A stretch of 32,188 nt of DNA. It comes from a virus (lineage: Duplodnaviria > Caudoviricetes). Every line of letters starts with the position of its first letter. Position 1 is the first letter of the stretch. The notes under the pieces were generated by a model. The model worked only from the letters and a program-made list of their open reading frames with translations. It made no database searches and had not been told where the DNA came from. Where the stretch lies: positions 1 through 32,188 of the IMG/VR virus record IMGVR_UViG_3300035162_000133; one strand, 5' to 3'. Positions 1 to 32,188 of this stretch are shown here, one piece after another. The translations under genes were made by a program, and so were the position numbers.

Positions 1-2445
1 AAAAAGCATACTATTTGCAGCAGTTTTTATTAATCTAAAAACACTTTCTTTTTGTATTATACAACCATTTGTGTCTGAACTATTAACCCAAGCTGAAATA
101 GAAATATTACTATAAGAAGAATAATTTATATCTCCAATAGTCATATAATCATCAGAACCATCAAAATCAACTTGCTTAGTATTAAATACTGTAGGGTTAC
201 CTGACTGATAGTCGTTTCTATTTACAAGTAGATTAGTAGGCATACCTTGATTGTATAGTGATGCTACTTCTAAGTCTGTAAGAGTTCTATCCCATAAACC
301 AAATTCAGTCATTTTACCATCTAAATAAAGTGCTTGTGGATATTGCATACCAAACAAAATATTTTCTGTTAAATTTAAAGTTATTCCTTTAATTACAACA
401 AGATGCCAATGACCATCATTTGGAACTGTAGCAGTTTGAAATCCATCTACATAAGGAGTACCACTTGATATTGAAAGAATATCTAAATCTAAATAAACAA
501 AACCTGTTCCTGTACCACCTAAACCTCTAAAATCAGCAATAAATTGTTCTCCTGTATTATCATCTCTCTTTATCCAACAAGAAACTGAACCTGTAAAGCT
601 ACCTATAGTAATGTTAGCTTTTAAATAATCATCAGCACCATCAAACTCCATACTATTAGTAGAAGTGATTAATGGATTAGCTGACTGATAAGCACCTGAA
701 TTAAGCATAAGGTTTGTAGCATCGTGCTTTAGTTCTTGTAATACTACGTTGGTTATTGAATAATTAGGTGCTACTCCTGATTTGAAAGCATATAAATTTA
801 AACGAGTATTATTATAAGTTGATGTAAAATTAAATGTTGTTTCTCCATTTGCAATAGTAGCATAACCATAAATATCTTGATTTGAAACACCTGTCAGTCT
901 AATAAGTAATTGTGCATTAGCACCTGCATCAGCAACTGTTAAAATTAATTTATATTCTGAACCTGCTGAAAAACTAACTGCATGAGATGTATTATTGTTA
1001 TAAGGTGCTGCACTTGCATCCCAAGATGCTTGTCCTTGCTCTAAACTCCAACCATCAGTAATTGCCCACCCCTGTCCTACTTCTTTGACTGATATGTTGT
1101 CTATTGTACCTTCGTAATTGAAAGCATAAAAACCTATCTCACTATTTGAAGGAGAATTTATAGTAAATGTTTGTACCTCTAAACCTGTACCTGTGTCAAG
1201 GGTATATATAGTGCTTGATGAATATGAAGTGCCATTTTTAACAAATAAAGTACCACTAACTCTATTACTACTGAATGAAATTTTATATGATTTATTAACA
1301 ACTAAACCTAAATCTTGAGTTAATAAATTTGATGTAGATGTAGAACCATCTGCTTCAGCTACACCATCTCCCATACTCCAACCTCCACCAAAACTCCAAT
1401 CTTGCCCAACCTCTTTTACTGATATATCATCTAAAGTCAATATATTAGAGGTAAGTGTTCCAATAAAAGAAATGTAACTAGAATAATTAACATAAAAATC
1501 AAATGTAGTAGGAGTAGTTGTAATAGTTTGTTGTGGGGTAAAATTTGTTAAATCTCCTGAACATTCTAGTAATGCTGTTCCTGTATTTGTTGAAGCTAAT
1601 ACTGATACTTTATAAAGTTTACCTGCCACTACACCCATATAAATCCCATTTAACCTAATACCACCTGAGCTAGTAATTCTAATACTACCATCATTAACTC
1701 CTGTTGATGGTGCAAAACTACCACCAAACCCACTTATCCAATTATGTAAAGCAGAAGTGTCGCTAAAATTTCCGTTAAGATTGTAATTAGTTATTTCTTC
1801 TGAACCTATCTCACTAAAATCTCCATTAGTTACTTCTTCATTACCTATCTGACTAAAGTTACCATTAGCTACTCTGTTTGGAGAGTAGTATGTATTGTAC
1901 ATACGAGTAATCTCTGCTTGAGTTAGTTCTCTATCAAATACTGCAAACTCATCTATGTTCCCTGTAAAATAAGTACCACTTGCTGCTTTATTTCCTCCTA
2001 TAGTTAATGATTCTGTATAAGCATCAGCACTACCTGATGAAACTGTTGATTCAACTGTTTGTAATATACCATCACAATATAACTTAGAATTTGTTATATC
2101 GTTAGTATCTGAATAAACTACCCAATGATGCCACTCTCCATCAGATTGCTTGTCTGTACTATTCCAAAACCTATAATAAGAACCACCAAGATATAAAATA
2201 GGTCTTGTTGGTGTGGAATTATTTAATTGAAAACCACCCTGACTATCTGCACCGTGTCCAAATACTATATTTTTTGTTGCTGTACTTGACTTAGACCAAA
2301 AAGAATAAGTAGTAGGTTGTGCTACAGTATCTGCACCATCAGTAATAATACATTGGTCTACTCCATCAAAGATAATAGAATGTTTATTTACAAACCTATA
2401 GGTAGGTATAGTTGGTAAACTTAACTTTTTAGCTAATGCTAACAT
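1..2445 (-). CDS. N-terminal part of giant LamG/CBM-like adhesin (receptor-binding or fibre protein), open at the window edge
   Basis: Not in the ORF track. My translation from ATG 2445 (MLALAKKLSLPTIPTYRFVNKHSIIFDGVDQ...) has no stop in 815 codons. It has LamG motifs (FDGxD, YSFW, DGEWHH, FTGNIDEFAVFDRELT) and NGxFS...DxISVKE CBM-like motifs. It joins 32166 in frame through the repeat, giving ~1800 aa. Confidence 0.88.
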   Translation of the reverse strand, partial: MLALAKKLSLPTIPTYRFVNKHSIIFDGVDQCIITDGADTVAQPTTYSFWSKSSTATKNIVFGHGADSQGGFQLNNSTPTRPILYLGGSYYRFWNSTDKQSDGEWHHWVVYSDTNDITNSKLYCDGILQTVESTVSSGSADAYTESLTIGGNKAASGTYFTGNIDEFAVFDRELTQAEITRMYNTYYSPNRVANGNFSQIGNEEVTNGDFSEIGSEEITNYNLNGNFSDTSALHNWISGFGGSFAPSTGVNDGSIRITSSGGIRLNGIYMGVVAGKLYKVSVLASTNTGTALLECSGDLTNFTPQQTITTTPTTFDFYVNYSSYISFIGTLTSNILTLDDISVKEVGQDWSFGGGWSMGDGVAEADGSTSTSNLLTQDLGLVVNKSYKISFSSNRVSGTLFVKNGTSYSSSTIYTLDTGTGLEVQTFTINSPSNSEIGFYAFNYEGTIDNISVKEVGQGWAITDGWSLEQGQASWDASAAPYNNNTSHAVSFSAGSEYKLILTVADAGANAQLLIRLTGVSNQDIYGYATIANGETTFNFTSTYNNTRLNLYAFKSGVAPNYSITNVVLQELKHDATNLMLNSGAYQSANPLITSTNSMEFDGADDYLKANITIGSFTGSVSCWIKRDDNTGEQFIADFRGLGGTGTGFVYLDLDILSISSGTPYVDGFQTATVPNDGHWHLVVIKGITLNLTENILFGMQYPQALYLDGKMTEFGLWDRTLTDLEVASLYNQGMPTNLLVNRNDYQSGNPTVFNTKQVDFDGSDDYMTIGDINYSSYSNISISAWVNSSDTNGCIIQKESVFRLIKTAANSMLF
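145..265. repeat. 121-bp exact direct repeat, copy 1 (internal)
   Basis: ATAATCATCAGAACC...GTATAGTGATGCT is identical to 32068-32188. The sequences diverge immediately to the left (t144 vs a32067). Confidence 0.97.
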
Positions 2446-2448
2446 ATA

Positions 2449-2712
2449 TTAGTTTTTATATCCGATAGCTAATCCTGAAGTCAGAGTAATAGCAGTCGTG
2501 TTCATAAACAATGTCGTTCCTGCAGGTATTGTCGTAACTAAGTTACTTGCACCTGTTGAATTAGTTACAGTAATAGCAGATATTACACTTTCTAAAACAA
2601 AGTATATTGCATAATAATCTTTACCTGTTTGTTCAGTAGTTGTAAAAACCTCTACCCCACCTAATCCTCCTAATTGCTCATTTAATAATGCTTGTGTATT
2701 TTTTATTCCCAT
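2449..2712 (-). CDS. Small beta-rich putative virion protein
   Basis: 87-aa ORF rich in T/G/V/I, directly upstream of the adhesin gene. Function is inferred from context only. Confidence 0.6.
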   Translation of the reverse strand: MGIKNTQALLNEQLGGLGGVEVFTTTEQTGKDYYAIYFVLESVISAITVTNSTGASNLVTTIPAGTTLFMNTTAITLTSGLAIGYKN

Positions 2713-2725
2713 TTTTTTTATTTAT

Positions 2726-3214
2726 TTAACTAACGTAAACGTAATTTGTTTGTGCAGGTCTTGTATAAGAATCGTACTGCACTTCTTCGCCACCTGTTGG
2801 TTCTTTTATATATAATTTTCCTAACTCTACTAATCCTTGCACTACTCCCTTATTATTTGCAGGTGGTAGTAATACATCTGTTTCATTAATTGGTGCAGTA
2901 CCTGTCGCTAAAACTACATTAGCAGACTGCCAACTAACCTCGTATATCTCGTATGACCAATACCCATTAGGCATAAAGTTTACTTTACCTGTAAAAACAT
3001 CTTGTAAAGCAGTTGTACTTGGTGTCATATTAACTCTTGTGTATCTGTTGTTTACTAACTGTGTTTGTCCGTATGAATAAACAACATTTCTATCCATATC
3101 ATTTGTGAACTTAAATAGAAACCTTAGCTTTTGTGTTGGTGCAGTTGTATCTATACGATTTTCTTCTGTTGTAGTATAAAAAGTGTAAGGTTGATCGTAT
3201 TGTCCGTGTATCAT
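2726..3214 (-). CDS. Putative virion structural protein
   Basis: 162-aa ORF directly after a late-promoter motif. No catalytic motif recognised. Confidence 0.55.
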   Translation of the reverse strand: MIHGQYDQPYTFYTTTEENRIDTTAPTQKLRFLFKFTNDMDRNVVYSYGQTQLVNNRYTRVNMTPSTTALQDVFTGKVNFMPNGYWSYEIYEVSWQSANVVLATGTAPINETDVLLPPANNKGVVQGLVELGKLYIKEPTGGEEVQYDSYTRPAQTNYVYVS

Positions 3215-3217
3215 AAT

Positions 3218-3246
3218 ATATAATAGAAAAACATTGATTTTGTTTG
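3218..3246 (-). promoter_or_regulatory. Putative late promoter CAAA-N15-TCTATTATAT, 3 nt before ATG 3214
   Basis: One of five copies of the motif upstream of structural genes. Confidence 0.75.
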
Positions 3247-4851: not shown

Positions 4852-5622
4852 TTATTTAATAGTGTAATTATATAAGATTCTTTCTCTCTTTGTCATTCTT
4901 TTTAAATCTGGAGTAAAATCTTTTTTGTCTGTGCTAAACTTGTTAGTCGCTAAAGGTACATCAGCAGGTTCATTTGATAACTCAACTACTTTAGATTTTA
5001 ATTCATCTATTTTAGCTTGGTATTCAAATTCTACTTCTTCTGTAGTCTTTATTTTTTTAGGAGTTGGATTGTTATCTGTGTCCATTTCTACATCAGATTC
5101 TTCTTCCTCAATATTTCCTACTTTATCTTTTTTAAGGTCTGCAACTGCATCTTCAAGGTTTTGTATTCTTTTTTCCATACCTGCCCAGTCCTCTACATCA
5201 GCTTCCTTACCATCATCTTCTGCCATATCTTCTTTATCTCCTTTAAGATCAGATATAGCATCCTCTAAGTTCTGGATTCTTTTCTCCATTCCTTTCCAAT
5301 CAGCAACATCTGCTTCTTCTTCCATTTCTTCTTCAACAGGTGCGCCTTCAGTTTCCTTTTCTACTTCATCTTCGTAAAGTTCAGCTACAATACCTTCCTT
5401 TTCAACTGAAAAAGCCATACCTTCATCTGTACGATATTGACCTTCTGGTAATAAGATTGTTGAACCATCTTCTGTTAATACAGAAATATCACTACCTGCT
5501 TCTAATGCAACTGCAGTAGATACTATAATAGTACCATCTTCAAGTTTTGCTTGAAATTCAAGTTTAACTTCATCTTGCTTATCAAGACCAAGTGCAACTA
5601 ATATTTGTTCTTTTAAATCCAT
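4852..5622 (-). CDS. Capsid scaffolding protein
   Basis: Very acidic, coiled-coil, lies between protease and capsid genes, and ends in a basic helix (MTKRERIL). Confidence 0.7.
   Translation of the reverse strand: MDLKEQILVALGLDKQDEVKLEFQAKLEDGTIIVSTAVALEAGSDISVLTEDGSTILLPEGQYRTDEGMAFSVEKEGIVAELYEDEVEKETEGAPVEEEMEEEADVADWKGMEKRIQNLEDAISDLKGDKEDMAEDDGKEADVEDWAGMEKRIQNLEDAVADLKKDKVGNIEEEESDVEMDTDNNPTPKKIKTTEEVEFEYQAKIDELKSKVVELSNEPADVPLATNKFSTDKKDFTPDLKRMTKRERILYNYTIK
5122..5316 (-). repeat. Two 28-codon internal repeats in the scaffold gene (period 111 bp)
   Basis: EADVADWKGMEKRIQNLEDAISDLKGDK (5233-5316) and EADVEDWAGMEKRIQNLEDAVADLKKDK (5122-5205). Confidence 0.9.
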
Positions 5623-5639
5623 AGTAAGTTCTTTTTTTT

Positions 5640-5668
5640 ATATAATAGAATTATTTATTGTTTGTTTG
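5640..5668 (-). promoter_or_regulatory. Putative late promoter for scaffold-capsid-tail tube
   Basis: CAAA-N15-TCTATTATAT, 17 nt upstream of ATG 5622. Confidence 0.75.
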
Positions 5669-5672
5669 ATTT

Positions 5673-6707
5673 TTAAAGTTTTTCTTGATATATTTTAGCC
5701 GACATTCTTGCAAATCCGTTTTGAACCTCGCCTAATCTTTTTAATATAAATTCTAAATCACTATATGGTTCAGATTTTCTAACATCAATACCTAATTCTT
5801 TTGCAGCACTTTCAAATTTCTTCCTTAAAGTTTCTGCTTTTTTATTTAATCCATTGACTGCTTTATTTTTATCTGCTGCAATATTTGATAATTTTTTTCT
5901 TGTGTCTTTAAAATCTTTTGTAAATTCTTTTGTTTGATTAAAAAGTTTTTCTATATCATCTGTAATACCCAACTCAATCTTTTGAGTTTTAAGTTCTGTT
6001 TTGCTTTTTATCATTTCATTTAAAGCACTTAGTATTTGTTCTGTTGTTGGTTGTATTTTTGCCATTTTTTCCATTTTATTAATAAAGTATCCTTCTATGC
6101 TTAGACCTTTTAACTCTCCATCTTTTATCTTACTCCAAATATCATCATTATTGATTTTCATTTTAACAAACCAAGTACCATTAGGTAAGTCATAACCATA
6201 TAGTTTAGACTTATCCATATCTCCTTCTTTTATCCAACTTTCTACAGTTAAAACACCTGTAACATCTTCTTCGTGTTGATATGTAGCCTTATGATGATTG
6301 TTATGCTTTAGATATAGACTTGCAGCTTCAGCAACAGTTTCTTTAGAAAAGTAAACGTAATAATCACTATTAGTATTAGGATCGTGTCTAAATATCTGTT
6401 TGTTAGGAATAAGTGCAGGACTAACTAACATTCTTTTCTCCTCATCTATCTTAGCAAATGTTAGATTGTTCTTCTCTTTTCCAAAAAACACAAAATTTTC
6501 TTCTATAGCAGGACTAGTAACCAGACTAATAGCATCTATTGTAAGTTCTGGACTTTCATCAGCTATTACTAATTCTACTATTGAAGTAGTCTTTAAATTC
6601 TTATAATGTTTAGGGTTTGCTTTTTCACAAGCAGCTTTTGAATCGTATTTACACTCTCCATTTTCTCCCCACTTCCATTTTCCGTTATCACATTTTGTAC
6701 AAGGCAT
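5673..6707 (-). CDS. Prohead maturation protease (XkdF-like) with N-terminal Cys-rich and C-terminal helical extensions
   Basis: AISLVTSPAIE, DEEKRMLVSPALIPN, H, VESWI, GTWFVKMKI, GELKGLSIEG pattern of XkdF/S78-like prohead proteases. Confidence 0.8.
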   Translation of the reverse strand: MPCTKCDNGKWKWGENGECKYDSKAACEKANPKHYKNLKTTSIVELVIADESPELTIDAISLVTSPAIEENFVFFGKEKNNLTFAKIDEEKRMLVSPALIPNKQIFRHDPNTNSDYYVYFSKETVAEAASLYLKHNNHHKATYQHEEDVTGVLTVESWIKEGDMDKSKLYGYDLPNGTWFVKMKINNDDIWSKIKDGELKGLSIEGYFINKMEKMAKIQPTTEQILSALNEMIKSKTELKTQKIELGITDDIEKLFNQTKEFTKDFKDTRKKLSNIAADKNKAVNGLNKKAETLRKKFESAAKELGIDVRKSEPYSDLEFILKRLGEVQNGFARMSAKIYQEKL

Positions 6708-6710
6708 AAT

Positions 6711-6739
6711 ATATAATAGATTTAATTAGTTATTATTTG
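6711..6739 (-). promoter_or_regulatory. Putative late promoter, 3 nt before ATG 6707
   Basis: CAAA-N15-TCTATTATAT. Confidence 0.75.
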
Positions 6740-6743
6740 ATTT

Positions 6744-8624
6744 TTAAATTGTTGCTCTCCTACGAATATAAGCCAATTTGTTTTGATTATCTGTAAGATT
6801 GTCTGTAACTACATAGGCTTGAATAGGTTGTTGTTCTGGTGTATCTCCTAAGTTAAAGTTTCCACTTAACATTTGGGGTGCAGGAGTTTGTGGACTACCA
6901 CTAGGAACTGAACCTCCTCCTCCTCCCCCTCCTGGCACATCTGTTTGTAGTATTGTTCTTACATTGTTAAGTCCTGTTGCAATTATTGCTGCAGCTTGTA
7001 TAAATCCTAAAGGTGTTCCTGCACCTGCTGCTAAAGCCTTATTTGCACCTACATAAGTATCTATAACTGCTGATGCTACTGCTAATGCTTTGTTATCTCC
7101 TGCCAAAGTACTTAATGCACCTGCTAGACTAGAATAAGCATCTAATTGATCGTTAATTCCTGCTTGTACTACTTGGGTTTTTTGTTTTTCATATTGCTTA
7201 GTTAATGCAGTAATATCTGTTCCTGACTTCTCAGCCATTTTAAGTTTTTCCTTATAGGCATTTTCTAATTCTAATAATTCCCTTTCTATACCATTAAGAC
7301 CTTCAGCAGCTAATTGATTTTGTATTTCTAATAGTTCTTTTTCTAAAGATACCTGATTAGTCATTTGTTCACTTCTAAAACCTGCTATTTGTGCTTCAAC
7401 TCCTGCCCTATCATTTAATGTTTGCTGATAAGCTACTTGTAAATCTATATTTTCTTTATTAGCATCTAATTCTAATTTTGCTGCTGCTATCCGTGTATCT
7501 GCTAATGATAACATTTCTTTTTCTTGCTTATTTAATATATCTGCTAATTCGTTATTAGCTGCTATACGTTCAGCAAAAGTTTTAGATTCATCATCCCTAA
7601 TTTGTCTTTGTAATTCAGCAAGTCTATCGTTCTTTTCAATTAATCCTTGTATTTGGGCTTCTGCTATTTTAGCTGCATTACCTGCTGCAGTAGTTGATTT
7701 TGATAATTCAAAATTACCTTTAATACTTATTTTAGAAACACCTTCGGCTACTTTTTCATATATAGCACCTATTTCAGTAACTGCATCTCCAAAATTAGTA
7801 ACTATGTTTTTACCTGCATCTATTGCTGCATTACCTACTTTTTCTATATCTATTATTGTTTTTCCAATACTTATTTGAAGTTCAGCCATTTTACTTTTAT
7901 CTCCATTACCTAAAGCTGAACCTTCCCAAGCTAATTGAACTTGATCTATTGCTAGTTTCATTCCTAAAAAAGCTAGTTTTAATGGTGTTATTGCTATAGT
8001 TGTAATACCTTTAATAACTTGACCTAAACCATTAAACCTATCACTAGATGCAGTAACCCATACAACAACATCAGCTAATGTACTAGCTAAATCATTAAAT
8101 GTTTTAGAAATAGTACCTACTACAGTATTCATAGTATCTAAAAACTTTTGGTTTCTTTCTAATGCTTCTTTTAAAGCTACAAAACCTGCTACAAGTAAAC
8201 CAATACCCATAGCCTTTAAAGCACTTCCTATTCCTTTAGCAGCAACACCCATCTTTTTAAAACCTTTAGCACCATCTTCTGTGCCTTTTTCTAAATCTTT
8301 AACACTATCTCTATTGTCATCTATCTGGTTTTTAATTTCTGTTAAACCTATTTTTTCTAACTTTAATTCATCATTAGCTTTTTCTATAGCTTCTTCTAAA
8401 GCATAGAACCCTGCAGCACCTGTCATTGGTGTATCTCTTAATTGAGCCTTCATTAAAACTAAATCTTTTTCAAGATCAGTAATAACTTCTTTTTGAATAC
8501 TCATTTGTTCATTTAAATTTTTGTATTCAGTTTCAGCATCAACTACTGATTTTACTAATTCTTTATTATCTTTAGTAACTGATTTTACATTTGATTTTAC
8601 ATCAAATACTATTTCTTCTGCCAT
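6744..8624 (-). CDS. Tail tape measure protein
   Basis: 626 aa, Ala/Lys/Glu-rich helical protein with a hydrophobic GIGLLVAGFVAL segment and C-terminal IQAYVV. Confidence 0.8.
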   Translation of the reverse strand: MAEEIVFDVKSNVKSVTKDNKELVKSVVDAETEYKNLNEQMSIQKEVITDLEKDLVLMKAQLRDTPMTGAAGFYALEEAIEKANDELKLEKIGLTEIKNQIDDNRDSVKDLEKGTEDGAKGFKKMGVAAKGIGSALKAMGIGLLVAGFVALKEALERNQKFLDTMNTVVGTISKTFNDLASTLADVVVWVTASSDRFNGLGQVIKGITTIAITPLKLAFLGMKLAIDQVQLAWEGSALGNGDKSKMAELQISIGKTIIDIEKVGNAAIDAGKNIVTNFGDAVTEIGAIYEKVAEGVSKISIKGNFELSKSTTAAGNAAKIAEAQIQGLIEKNDRLAELQRQIRDDESKTFAERIAANNELADILNKQEKEMLSLADTRIAAAKLELDANKENIDLQVAYQQTLNDRAGVEAQIAGFRSEQMTNQVSLEKELLEIQNQLAAEGLNGIERELLELENAYKEKLKMAEKSGTDITALTKQYEKQKTQVVQAGINDQLDAYSSLAGALSTLAGDNKALAVASAVIDTYVGANKALAAGAGTPLGFIQAAAIIATGLNNVRTILQTDVPGGGGGGGSVPSGSPQTPAPQMLSGNFNLGDTPEQQPIQAYVVTDNLTDNQNKLAYIRRRATI

Positions 8625-15550: not shown

Positions 15551-16074
15551 AAAAAAACCAGAGAACTATTAACATCTCTTGCCTTCATCTTCTCAAATTT
15601 CTTAGCCCTCATCCGTGAATCACTTATACCATAGGCTTCAATAGAATAATCTTTACCATCTCTCTCTGTTATTGGTCTGTATAATACTGCTATCAGCTTA
15701 GTTAAGTTATCTTCTAAACCATTCTTTAAGTACGTTTCTATATCTGCATACTCTCCTAAAGTTATTTCCTCTAAGTTAGGATGAAAGCCATACTCTACAT
15801 TATCTAACTTTATTATCTTTTTAAGTTTAGTATCTTCTTTTGCTTGTAAGTCTGATATTTTTTTTAATAATATTGCAACATCTCCTATAGCTAATTCATT
15901 TATAAGTTTCTTAGGTATATCAGATAAAACACTAATAGTATCTAGTGCATCTTGTGTTTTAGTTTTCTCTTTCCTACTTATAAGTTTAACCCATTTATCA
16001 AGTGTAACATCATCCCAACTTTTAATTAGATTGTAATTAGTTTTCTTGCCTTCTTTATTAATCTTGACTTGCAT
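15430..16074 (-). CDS. Putative tail assembly chaperone (gpG-like)
   Basis: 214 aa (SWDDVTL, YGFHPNLEEITLGEYADIE, AVLYRP). Contains a T9 slippery site leading into the overlapping -1 ORF. Confidence 0.65.
   Translation of the reverse strand: MQVKINKEGKKTNYNLIKSWDDVTLDKWVKLISRKEKTKTQDALDTISVLSDIPKKLINELAIGDVAILLKKISDLQAKEDTKLKKIIKLDNVEYGFHPNLEEITLGEYADIETYLKNGLEDNLTKLIAVLYRPITERDGKDYSIEAYGISDSRMRAKKFEKMKARDVNSSLVFFWTLGKELSIILPLYLMEQSKAILDRMQENNLQTNGDGLV
15549..15558 (-). other. Programmed -1 ribosomal frameshift site G-TTTTTTTTT
   Basis: CTG GTT TTT TTT TGG. The U UUU UUU heptamer gives ...VFF-LDFRER in the -1 frame, a 256-aa product. Confidence 0.7.
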
Positions 16075-16077
16075 ATT

Positions 16078-16107
16078 ATATAATAGAATTAGTTAATTTT
16101 TAGTTTA
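16078..16107 (-). promoter_or_regulatory. Putative late promoter, 3 nt before ATG 16074
   Basis: TCTATTATAT is exact. The upstream element is TAAA at N16 rather than CAAA at N15. Confidence 0.7.
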
Positions 16108-16113
16108 ATATCG

Positions 16114-16121
16114 TATATTTG
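16114..16121 (+). promoter_or_regulatory. Bacteroidota-type -7 box (TATATTTG) on the plus strand
   Basis: Matches TAnnTTTG and is intergenic. TTAG at 16089-16092, 21 nt upstream, is a possible -33 element. Confidence 0.55.
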
Positions 16122-16123
16122 CT

Positions 16124-17641: not shown

Positions 17642-17672
17642 AATTGAAATAGATTGATTATTCAATCTTTAT

Positions 17673-17701
17673 ATATAATAGAAATTAGTTGTATTCATTT
17701 G
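17673..17701 (-). promoter_or_regulatory. Putative late promoter for terS-terL
   Basis: CAAA-N15-TCTATTATAT; the CAAA part lies within the end of the NinB-like gene. Confidence 0.75.
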
Positions 17702-28709: not shown

Positions 28710-28955
28710 TTATTCTTGTTCAGGTGTCCAGGCAGCAGTATTAACTATTGCTAAGATTTCTTCGTGAGTATATTGGTCTAATCCATCTAAAAACGTTGGA
28801 GTATCTCCCTCAAATTTAGCAATAAATAATGTACCATCTACTGACTTTCTAACAGTTTCTGCTGAATCTTCTACAATTTGTGAGAAGTCGCATACAGGAT
28901 TTCCCTCTGCATCTACTTCAGCTAATAATGTTGTTAATGGTGTTGTATAAATCAT
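28710..28955 (-). CDS. Small acidic protein following the adhesin (possible fibre chaperone/partner)
   Basis: 81 aa (DFSQIVEDSAETVRKSVDG...KFEGDTPTFL...YTHEEIL). Role inferred from position. Confidence 0.55.
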   Translation of the reverse strand: MIYTTPLTTLLAEVDAEGNPVCDFSQIVEDSAETVRKSVDGTLFIAKFEGDTPTFLDGLDQYTHEEILAIVNTAAWTPEQE

Positions 28956-28965
28956 AATTTAATTT

Positions 28966-31900
28966 TTAATTGTTTGGTGTATCAGGAACTATATCTCCTG
29001 CAGTCATATTAATCATTGTTCCGTAGTTATTTTCTGTAAATAAATCTATTGTTACAGGTAATCCAAAAGTTGGTGCATACGTTTCTGCTTGTGTTTGTTG
29101 TTCTAACTGCGCACCCCATATATATGCCCCTGAACTTCCATCTCCTGTATAAGATGATACTGATTGTGTGTCAGAAACCCAAAACTCACACCTTGCCTGT
29201 GCATTAGAGGTATTACTTAATGTTATCCTAAACCAACCATTATTTACTTGTTCTATAGTAGAATTATTAGGTGCGCCAAGATATGTAATTCCAAGAGTAC
29301 CATTTATTAAATCATACCATCTTCCAACACTTTGGTCTGCAAATCTAATTAACATATATCTTCTTCCGTTATATTTAACAAATACTGAAATAGAAGCATT
29401 TGGCGATATTGACACAGTTGAGGTTTCGTAAATTCTATGCACAGAATTACTTGTATTTTCAATTAATTTATAAGCAGTAGCAGTTCCATCAGGAGAAATA
29501 AATCCACCTGTAACACTTACACCATCTTTTACCCAACTACTTTGTGTAAAATCTTCACTATAAGTAACTAAGTTAGTAGTTGTTGCTTTTCTTACTGATG
29601 CTACACCATAAGATGGTAAGTATGCAGTAGCTTGATGTTGTTGTTCTGCTTGTGCGCCCCAAGCCAAAACATCAATACTTTGTGCAGTTGTTACATCAAA
29701 CAAGGTTAAAGCTGCTGCGTTTGAAACACCTCCTGAAGTGTAAGTAAAAGTGTATCGTTGCCATTCTGTTGTTAAAGTAATTGTACCACGAATTGTATTT
29801 CCCCAACCAAAGTTTATTTCAGGAGTTCCATTTAATGATTTTAGAAAAATTGTTTGAGTATTAGTTACCCCACTTGTTGTAGTAAATAATTGATAAACTT
29901 CAGCATACCCTGTATTTCCTTTGTCTAATTGTACACGACTTGCATTTTGTGTTCCATCAGGAGAAATTCCATAATTTGGTGTAACACTTGCAGAAGCAGT
30001 ACCACCACCTGTTACTGTAGTCCATTGAGATAAATCTTGTGAATACGTTACTAAATTAGTAGTAGGTATATGTGCAAGATTAGGACTTGTTTGGTCTTGA
30101 ATGTTTGGAAACTTATCTAATATACCATCTCCCATTCTATAGTAGTTTCTAATCTTAGTTAGTGGATATTGGTTAGTGATATTACCCTCTACCATATTGG
30201 TCATAGTTGCAGGATTGCCTTGTACTTGTTTTACTGATACATTGTCTATTGAGCCTGTAAAAGTTCCAATAGCATATACTCTTAAAGTCATAGTACCTGT
30301 ATAAGTAGGAGAAAAATAAAATATTACTGTTACGGTTTCTTGTGTAGTATCACTATAACTACCTAATGTTGTATTAACACCATCTGATATAAAATCAGAA
30401 TATAAATTAGTTTCGCCATTACCTGATATATAAGTTCTTTCATAGATTACTTTATATACTTTTCCTGCTTCTACACTTATGTCTTGTGAAATCCCTCTAT
30501 TTTGTGTCTGTCCACTTATTGATGCTTTACCATTTGCTATTGTCCATCCTGTTTGTTTTATCCAATCAGAATCAGTAGCAAAATCTCCATTAACAACTAT
30601 TTCAGCACCAAGAGTAGGATTAGTTTGGTCATAGATAACAGGGTACTCATCATTAATACCACTACCCATCTTCCAATATCCTTGTAGTCCTGTGTTTACT
30701 TCTTCTACTGTTACGTTGTCTATTGAACCTATGAAATTATTTCTTGCTGATATATAAAAAATTGAATTACCTGATGAAATATTTACATAATGTTTAAAAG
30801 CACCATTACTATTAACAACTATTTGTAAATCAGAACCACCTAAAGAAACATAAACATAACCTTGAGTAACATTAGATGCATTACCTTCAACTAAAAAACT
30901 TTTACCATTAAATGAAGAAATTGTTTGACTTAAATTTGATGTTGCATCTGTACCATCACTTGTGGCACTTCCACCACTAATAGTCCAATTAGAACCCTTT
31001 GTCCAATCAGTATCAGTAGCAAAATCACTATTCTGTACTATATTAGCATAAGGACTACCATTCTCTATATCACTAGCAGTCATATTGGTCATTATAGCAG
31101 GGTTACCATTTACTTGTTTTACTGATACGTTGTCTATTGAACCTACAAAATCCGAAGCAGATGAAGTAAAGAATAACGTACCATTAGCAGTAGAAGCAAC
31201 TGTAATATAACCTGTGTATGTTCCTGAGGTAGATTGTGTGCTACCTGCCCAAACTGAAGATGAATCTCCTAATCTAACACTACCACTTGTTATTGTATAT
31301 GTAACTGAATATTTACATACTTGATTCTGAGCTAATATTCCTGATTGATTAGCTATAATATAAACTCCTGCTGAATTTGAATTTAATTTACCACCACTTA
31401 TAGTTGTATTAGCACCTTTAACCCAATTACTATCTGTAGCAAAATCTCCATTAACAACTAACTCACTACCTAAAGTAGCATTTGTTTGGTCAGCAATCAA
31501 TGGATATGTATCTAATGTACCACTACCCATTCTCCAATAACCTACTAAGTTAGATGAAGATGTATAAGCTGCTTGATCTGTGTTTAAGTCTACAGGTAAT
31601 CCGTGATTGTATAAAGAAGATACTTCATCAGCAGTTAGTGTAGAGTTCCATAATCCTACTTGACTTAATTCCCCACCTATAAAACTATTAGGGCTAGGTT
31701 GTAATCTAGCCATTATACCTAAAGGCATAGTGTTAGACAAAGAACCTGTTGCGCCTGTAAGAGAATCGTTTGTTCCTGAATTTACACCATCAATATATCT
31801 ATATCCTAATCCACTTCTATCAAAAACCCAAGCTATATGATGCCATTCCCCATCATTTACTGTAATAGTATCTTCTGTGTCGTAAGCTGCATTATTTGCT

Positions 31901-32188
31901 GCATCTTTCATATAATAACTTACTTTACCATTAGCTAAACCCATTTCATATCCTGCATCTGCTCTTTTAGCAAAAATCATTCCTTCTTCTTCTGTAGTTT
32001 TAAACCAAGCAGAAACAGAAAAATCATTTGTAGTTACATTAACAGAATCTGAATTAGATATATTTAAATAATCATCAGAACCATCAAAATCAACTTGCTT
32101 AGTATTAAATACTGTAGGGTTACCTGACTGATAGTCGTTTCTATTTACAAGTAGATTAGTAGGCATACCTTGATTGTATAGTGATGCT
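28966..32188 (-). CDS. C-terminal part of giant LamG/CBM-like adhesin (continuation of 2445..244)
   Basis: The listed Met at 32166 lies inside the repeat and equals the Met codon at 243 of the upstream ORF. Contains a LamG core, three YW/YRMG...MxNM segments and five CBM-like units. Confidence 0.88.
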   Translation of the reverse strand, partial: ASLYNQGMPTNLLVNRNDYQSGNPTVFNTKQVDFDGSDDYLNISNSDSVNVTTNDFSVSAWFKTTEEEGMIFAKRADAGYEMGLANGKVSYYMKDAANNAAYDTEDTITVNDGEWHHIAWVFDRSGLGYRYIDGVNSGTNDSLTGATGSLSNTMPLGIMARLQPSPNSFIGGELSQVGLWNSTLTADEVSSLYNHGLPVDLNTDQAAYTSSSNLVGYWRMGSGTLDTYPLIADQTNATLGSELVVNGDFATDSNWVKGANTTISGGKLNSNSAGVYIIANQSGILAQNQVCKYSVTYTITSGSVRLGDSSSVWAGSTQSTSGTYTGYITVASTANGTLFFTSSASDFVGSIDNVSVKQVNGNPAIMTNMTASDIENGSPYANIVQNSDFATDTDWTKGSNWTISGGSATSDGTDATSNLSQTISSFNGKSFLVEGNASNVTQGYVYVSLGGSDLQIVVNSNGAFKHYVNISSGNSIFYISARNNFIGSIDNVTVEEVNTGLQGYWKMGSGINDEYPVIYDQTNPTLGAEIVVNGDFATDSDWIKQTGWTIANGKASISGQTQNRGISQDISVEAGKVYKVIYERTYISGNGETNLYSDFISDGVNTTLGSYSDTTQETVTVIFYFSPTYTGTMTLRVYAIGTFTGSIDNVSVKQVQGNPATMTNMVEGNITNQYPLTKIRNYYRMGDGILDKFPNIQDQTSPNLAHIPTTNLVTYSQDLSQWTTVTGGGTASASVTPNYGISPDGTQNASRVQLDKGNTGYAEVYQLFTTTSGVTNTQTIFLKSLNGTPEINFGWGNTIRGTITLTTEWQRYTFTYTSGGVSNAAALTLFDVTTAQSIDVLAWGAQAEQQHQATAYLPSYGVASVRKATTTNLVTYSEDFTQSSWVKDGVSVTGGFISPDGTATAYKLIENTSNSVHRIYETSTVSISPNASISVFVKYNGRRYMLIRFADQSVGRWYDLINGTLGITYLGAPNNSTIEQVNNGWFRITLSNTSNAQARCEFWVSDTQSVSSYTGDGSSGAYIWGAQLEQQTQAETYAPTFGLPVTIDLFTENNYGTMINMTAGDIVPDTPNN
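32068..32188. repeat. 121-bp exact direct repeat, copy 2 (window end)
   Basis: Identical to 145-265. Confidence 0.97.

Follow-up and report, generated by a model that had tools for sequence, protein, structure and literature searches.

What arrangement do three LamG domains take when their openings follow one another along a phage protein and all their closing segments come afterwards, and what would a protein built in this manner do? The question is raised by a gene in the window (the whole stretch of DNA analysed here, a complete 32,188-bp contig with ~30% GC), whose minus strand carries terminase, portal, protease, capsid and endolysin genes. Within the window no recombinase was recognised, and an Rfam search gave no match. 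Sixteen of the 22 runs listed with part of the stretch were brine, seawater, marine or sponge metagenomes. The capsid protein has a match in a single cultured phage, Nonlabens phage P12024 (Inhavirus, JQ823123; 26%), whose gene order is similar, so that the data hint weakly at a marine Flavobacteriaceae host. The sole genome match (L005/L100, PAPR01000004.1) is a 36-kb phage contig of 32% GC within a Pseudooceanicola MAG bin; it is probably mis-binned and was not used as host evidence.

Two further traits of the window are recorded here. An AT-rich motif (ATATAATAGA) is repeated at 3210-3246, 5633-5685, 6703-6756, 16071-16123 and 17665-17701, just 5' of several structural genes (likely as a late promoter or ribosome-binding signal), and a putative scaffold protein (4852-5622) carries an internally duplicated 20-aa segment, ADV.DW.GMEKRIQNLEDA (aa ~104-123 and ~141-160).

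Order and depth of the LamG brackets

The openings are FDGVDQ (2370, residue 26 of the 2445 ORF), FDGADDY (645) and FDGSDDY (32088), and the closings begin with GYWRMG (31542), GYWKMG (30681) and NYYRMG (30147), with DQT at 31491, 30630 and 30096, MTNM at 31092 and 30204, and MINM at 29016, all as an earlier note on this DNA had placed them (Table 1). One detail of that reading fell: core 1 does not run straight into its end segment, for three nested CBM-like domains, together 385 aa, lie between the two. Matches to PF13385 stand above the gathering cut-off (89.2 and 77.3 bits against 27.6). A clostridial neurotoxin reading was rejected, as the PF07953 match and the fold matches were confined to the LamG core and no other toxin domain was found.

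Table 1. Features of the LamG gene and its surroundings, in window coordinates.
Feature	Positions	Strand	Basis
LamG1 core, outermost host	1891..2394	-	Pfam PF13385; varies less than any other slot (median 61% between relatives)
LamG1 linker DATNLMLNSGAYQSAN, LamG2 inserted after it	676..723	-	P0060 goes straight into closing 1
LamG2 core and linker (SLYNQGMPTNLLVNRNDYQSGN), LamG3 inserted after it	196..675	-	PF13385 search, depth series
LamG3 core and linker, innermost LamG	31549..32118	-	PF13385, E 1.8e-21
Closing 3a, LVGYWRMG...DQT	31468..31548	-	motif, profile alignment
Closing 3b, GNPAIMTNM...	31045..31110	-	motif, profile alignment
Closing 2a, GYWKMG...DQT	30607..30696	-	motif, splice points in relatives
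Closing 2b, GNPATMTNM...	30154..30222	-	motif
Closing 1a, IRNYYRMG...DQT	30064..30153	-	motif, P0060
Closing 1b, NNYGTMINM...DTPNN and stop	28966..29031	-	motif, profile alignment
Nest of three CBM-like domains after LamG1 helix	724..1878	-	stacked openings NGNFS 1866, NGDFS 1827, NGNFS 1776
CBM-like domain in LamG3 after DQT	31111..31467	-	equivalent L002 slot: 4d0q Z 15.7, 2zew Z 14.9, 8xmz Z 14.3
CBM-like domain in LamG2 loop, tandem after LamG3	30697..31044	-	position, slot conservation, L002 model
CBM-like domain in LamG2 after DQT	30223..30606	-	71% identical to closing-3 CBM of P0004
Two tandem TNL..WGAQ-type CBM-like modules in LamG1 after DQT	29032..30063	-	phrog_5939
N-terminal motif MLALAKKLSL, likely anchor peptide	2416..2445	-	relatives MLALANKL, MKLALGLSL, MGLGLG
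Gene of 87 aa immediately upstream, likely the base of a head spike (inferred role like that of RcGTA Rcc01079)	2449..2712	-	
81-aa gene	28710..28955	-	kept directly downstream in relatives L002, L003, L005, L006
Conserved hub, 121 nt, where the assembly closes or branches	145..265	.	identical to 32068-32188
Start of alternative LamG3-core allele, same population	1..144	-	P0161 match; X2 contig over 1-125

The earlier proposal that LamG3 is inserted in LamG2, and LamG2 in LamG1, at one and the same loop finds its support in a natural deletion series. Two protein searches yielded 228 stored relatives, which were parsed with HMMs (these match the LamG family by construction, because they were built from that same family), and 89 passed the completeness filter. 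When nesting depth was compared among these, openings equalled closings in 88 of the 89, at depths of 1, 2 or 3: 82 were balanced by regular-expression count (depth 1, n = 8; depth 2, n = 22; depth 3, n = 52) and six more by the HMM parse. The remaining member (P0007) has three openings and two closings, and a truncated protein outside the 89 (L001) has three openings and four closings. The NPA.MTNM hubs of the window are 84% alike over 70 nt, and the two exceptions look like the reciprocal products (deletion and duplication) of an exchange between such hubs, be it unequal crossover or assembly error.

In all 84 proteins with a closing detected by regular expression, every core stands before the first closing. 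The splice points can be read from the shallower members: in depth-1 P0060 the LamG1 linker runs directly into closing 1 (...ATNLMLNAGDYQAASD followed by LQNYYRMG), and in depth-2 P0003 and P0008 the LamG2 linker runs directly into closing 2 (...LLVSRGDYVATN followed by LVGYWKMG). Thus, where an inner LamG is absent the outer core adjoins its own closing, which fixes the pairing at the level of sequence, and the three LamG domains are, at this level, almost certainly nested.

The gene is cut by the contig ends, and its two parts (727 + 1073 aa, from the overlap of the ends) give the joined ORF of ~1,800 aa that had been proposed. The architecture of this join is upheld by intact relatives, found uncut mid-contig (e.g., the L002 protein of 1837 aa), whereas a clean terminal repeat is not: beside the 121 nt identical between the two ends, bases 1-144 diverge, with just 43 of the first 136 positions matching the other end. 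These bases encode a second LamG3-core allele, which over 48 aa is 81% identical to what P0161 carries in its LamG3 slot. A contig of run X1 leads from position 145 on to the sequence at 32038-32067, and a contig of X2 carries the 1-125 allele. The join is correct in architecture, either of the two alleles may share a molecule with this LamG2, and both belong to the LamG3 slot. The possibility that the ends come from a real four-LamG gene lacking its middle was rejected, given that 1-144 is a LamG3-slot allele and that none of the 89 complete relatives has four cores at that loop.

The eight CBM-like modules present agree with the earlier count of about eight, and their insertion at the loop after DQT was confirmed, with a CBM16/CBM70-like fold predicted in a slot of the relative L002 (Z 14-16 to CBM70/CBM16-type modules; 4d0q, rmsd 2.1 over 134). 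None of the eight reaches a Pfam cut-off (best, CBM_4_9, E 0.18). Beyond the LamG nesting, three of these domains are, by the order of their motifs, themselves nested: the stacked openings of the 724..1878 nest are followed by three cores ending in SVKEVGQ-W, SVKEVGQ-W and LQELKH. In relatives, 13-aa CBM openings stand stacked after the LamG1 helix and are followed by an equal number of headless cores, and among 20 proteins inspected 1, 2, 3 and 5 orphan openings correspond to inserts of ~260, 370-410, 500-510 and ~730 aa (regular-expression counts of the core ends miss some). The depth of CBM nesting in relatives is 2, 3, 4 or 6, the chain of P0132 being six deep inside LamG1.

The upstream gene and a likely place on the capsid

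The 87-aa protein encoded directly upstream has 1078 homologues. Of 347 viral loci that carry this gene, the best 80 were considered; the next gene lies within 20 nt in 79, and 35 of those 79 next genes start like the nested LamG family. The others encode unrelated proteins of 54-856 aa; across the loci, unrelated proteins of 54-1783 aa have as their only common feature an alternating-leucine N-terminus (e.g., MKLALGLSL), a motif judged by eye and less regular in the window phage than the IALGLGLGL of RcGTA. In L002, the 87-aa gene, the LamG gene and the 81-aa gene have moved as a trio to another genome position. The window copy of the 87-aa protein has no PHROGs or Pfam match (57 of 116 homologues match phrog_34166), no credible sequence match in the PDB, no match among cultured phages and, in the ESM Atlas, falls only with unnamed viral clusters.

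Some neighbouring observations stand apart from these. In ~30 loci (L037, L040, L043-L064 and others) the anchor-like motif stands at the head of a peptide of 54-55 aa (MKLALGLSL...RVIADGGVFEAKACL) and not of a large fibre; the peptide may be an adaptor to a fibre encoded by another gene. The 81-aa protein encoded downstream is acidic, has no family match and may be a chaperone or partner; in L007 an ORF resembling its gene product stands upstream of the LamG gene.

RcGTA offers a point of reference: there, a pentamer of the small jelly-roll base Rcc01079 holds the IALGLGLGL end of one fibre, Rcc01080, and this head fibre binds capsule (PMC7296036, PMC10218006). The word adhesin, used in the earlier note, describes a role that we can only infer, and a capsid head fibre is the more likely form of it than a tail part. 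By analogy with RcGTA the ~1,800-aa protein is probably such a head fibre, and its domains probably bind glycans. The likeness to the RcGTA spike is meant as ‘works like’ and not as membership, since no homology to the base was detected.

It seems unlikely that the nested protein is a tail or neck appendage (a side fibre or whisker) and not a head spike. Its two C-terminal modules, of the TNL..WGAQ type, do match phage tail-fibre and minor tail proteins (phrog_5939, a tail protein, at E 2e-19; tail-fibre modules at 30-37%), and the 87-aa base protein has no detectable sequence link to Rcc01079; but the gene sits between the capsid/tube cluster and the portal, away from the tape-measure region, and travels with the 87-aa gene, the N-terminal motif common to the loci resembles the RcGTA anchor, and an unsystematic look at the sequence noticed no trimeric fibre features.

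Variation among the domain slots

Variation was assessed in 43 depth-3 relatives of 1650-1950 aa, in blocks of 20 residues. The main linkers and closings are 79-98% conserved and the domain interiors mostly 10-30%, and the ten domain-interior slots (~25% alike) hold 29-36 alleles each at 70% identity. At this same threshold, 786 of 903 pairs have no slot in common, 104 exactly one and 13 two or more, as compared with 765, 129 and 10 expected under independence; slot identities between relatives are uncorrelated, and five pairs with four or more common slots, above independence, make up a clonal tail. Between two of the loci (L034 and L035) the flanks are 95-96% identical and several cassettes are unalignable.

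The hubs also stand out against the rest of the genome and in read depth. Between the window and its relatives they are mostly 85-96% identical and most structural-gene blocks 70-82%, and in three assemblies (X1-X3) the contigs of hubs have 5-15 times the depth of those of cores (window 1-2600; depth is a rough sign). At four-fold sites, the identical positions in hubs (values biased upward, because a hub needed at least 60% identity to be included) against neighbours show a clear excess in two of six loci (87/97 vs 158/254 in L001 and 26/31 vs 102/210 in L004) and little or none in the other four (L003, 111/126 vs 181/217; L006, 61/77 vs 159/220; L005, 25/35 vs 264/446; L002, 103/136 vs 30/55). 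Recombination at the hubs would be the simplest reading of the slot variation, and a real exchange of cassettes between related phages is, on this pattern, quite likely.

All relatives are metagenome assemblies, in which a hub that exceeds the assembly word in length can give rise to chimeras, and chimeric assembly can inflate assortment, not allele richness. We hold it improbable that the free assortment is mostly assembler chimerism across hubs, with real genes that are fewer and clonal. The hubs are indeed longer than usual word sizes, the window itself breaks at one, and 31 of the 79 downstream genes (best 80 of 347 loci) run off their contigs. However, chimeras could arise only where near-identical hubs enclose numerous alleles, and this is the very thing found; whole alleles recur identically in separate assemblies (L033 and L034, from two assemblies, are 100% identical over 8.4 kb); the 18 clusters met more than once give an equal pattern (131 pairs with no slot in common, 19 with one and 3 with more); and the same cassette is found in different slots too (up to 94% identical).

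Closings, folding and known systems

In profile comparison the closings match, in their order, the segment that lies between the cores of ordinary tandem LamG proteins (the piece from the helix to GYW with probability 96% and E 4e-9; the short closing pieces with scores of just 11-13, each above its own 10 shuffles), and P0053 opens with a closing-type segment ahead of its first core. By this alignment the closings are the strands that usually stand at the N-terminus of a bacterial LamG domain, displaced by circular permutation. The two ends of the permuted LamG would lie close together, so that the domain could be inserted into loops. The innermost domain of P0098 holds core, YRMG..D and GTMTNM unbroken.

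A second mode of nesting was read by eye in more distant relatives, in which LamG enters the post-DQ loop to a depth of 2-4: in P0098 and P0064 a first half-closing comes after each of the four cores, and four GxM-type strands are stacked at the C-terminus (in P0098, LamG is four deep at this second loop), while P0113 and P0120 are three deep and P0112 two. In L007:1162-5388 (P0006), P0194 and P0198, a LamG nest of depth 1/2 stands behind a different N-terminus (MSLYDEAILIQKPSG...) and has a long C-terminal part.

Two AlphaFold models were built from relatives, one of depth-2 P0003 (30-row alignment; pLDDT 59, pTM 0.41) and one of residues 557-1418 of the L002 protein, the LamG2-to-closing-2 stretch (66 rows; pLDDT 69, pTM 0.37). 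In both, cores and CBMs are folded and the hubs and closings are of low confidence (pLDDT about 30-68), presumably because invariant segments give no covariation. The modelled LamG cores resemble pentraxin, CBM40 and LamG structures (Z 17-20, rmsd 2.1-3.0), and a Foldseek search gave fold class only. In the structure search with the L002 model, no alignment spans a core plus its closing, and cores alone align over 159-170 residues; with the P0003 model, five aligned ranges fit the nested pairing (21-572 twice, 20-573, 20-572 and 218-544) and others go against it (205-725, 19-358 twice, and three with 361 or 360 as the last residue). The structural expectation of the earlier note, that closings would pack on their own cores and not fold independently, thus had a mixed outcome: the cores form near-complete sandwiches alone, which speaks against it, the closings are not independent domains, which speaks for it, and the packing was not confidently placed.

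Judging from the pairing in sequence, the closings very probably pack on their own cores in three dimensions. It is hardly likely that the cores are self-sufficient beads, with closings that are vestigial, flexible linkers or set crosswise (a bracketed origin and no rigid nest), a reading that agrees with the alignment of lone cores to solved domains, the low pLDDT of the closings and the closing missing in P0007 or supernumerary in L001, but that has against it the far stronger conservation of closings than of cores, the balanced counts, the homology of the closings to normal LamG strands and the covariation argument, by which the low AlphaFold confidence would be explained.

With rather more confidence than doubt, we favour one nested LamG/CBM chain that is likely a capsid-anchored, glycan-binding fibre, and whose interiors are likely exchanged by recombination in the conserved linkers. 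The permutation would unite each domain's two ends and let the whole domain drop into another's loop, and every closing would fold back onto its own core, so that the 11 domains would form a branched body in which two of the branches reach four levels. In the manner of RcGTA, the alternating-leucine N-terminal peptide would bind to the 87-aa protein, present as an oligomer on the capsid; the domains would bind host capsule or another polysaccharide in a first, reversible attachment, with infection proper carried out by separate tail genes. The 60-200-nt hubs would act as crossover sites, leaving ten nearly independent slots. A more tentative step, which we would not press, is that the nesting itself makes a library: the split ends would be gathered in a few invariant hubs serving as both frame and crossover sites, and a wild phage population would bear a capsid lectin tree with ten freely recombining whole-domain slots, dozens of alleles in each, and a depth changed by unequal crossover.

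The interest of the protein resides mainly in such a likely combinatorial adhesin library. Were the shuffling true, phages would here diversify by exchanging entire domains, a route for which no dedicated enzyme has yet been recognised, and the family would be a rich source of candidate binders of marine glycans, all set in one fixed frame that tolerates insertions. The family further provides a natural series (depth 0 to 6, with exact splice points), by which the origin and folding of recursive insertions become testable, and its conserved hubs and variable slots explain the frequent assembly breaks inside the LamG gene and its under-annotation.

In the literature searched, with few subscription papers in it, we found no description of a nested LamG/CBM phage family. 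Recursive insertion as such has already been published: Si3 of the cyanobacterial RNA polymerase beta' subunit follows an A1-B1-C-B2-A2 order over six levels and shares with the phage protein both the recursion and branching hosts with several inserts (PMC13114784). In contrast to Si3, the phage family has two beta-sandwich families that each nest in themselves, at variable depth (LamG 1-3, CBM 2-6), and hypervariable domain interiors; the word ‘concanavalin’ does not occur in the main text of PMC13114784. The LamG domains resemble PF13385 and the pentraxin and CBM40 folds (Pfam match above cut-off, fold Z 17-20) but, unlike ordinary LamG-like domains, have undergone circular permutation and are interrupted at two or three insertion loops. 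With P12024 only one CBM-like module is in common (33%), and no nested LamG match was found there.

With RcGTA the locus shares a small, putatively beta-type gene beside the fibre gene, an alternating-leucine N-terminus and a lectin-like body, yet its putative fibre has 1800 aa against 325 and is nested and hypervariable. A proposed carbohydrate-binding module on a capsid is also carried by the turrets of HFTV1 (PMC12494034). The T-even adhesin gp38 has hypervariable segments between conserved motifs that act as interchangeable specificity determinants (PMC3157838), and this layout, together with an N-terminal attachment part, would likewise apply to the phage fibre; but where in gp38 the variation is confined to four short segments within a single domain, the window family varies ten whole interiors of ~110-160 aa, which are mobile between slots.
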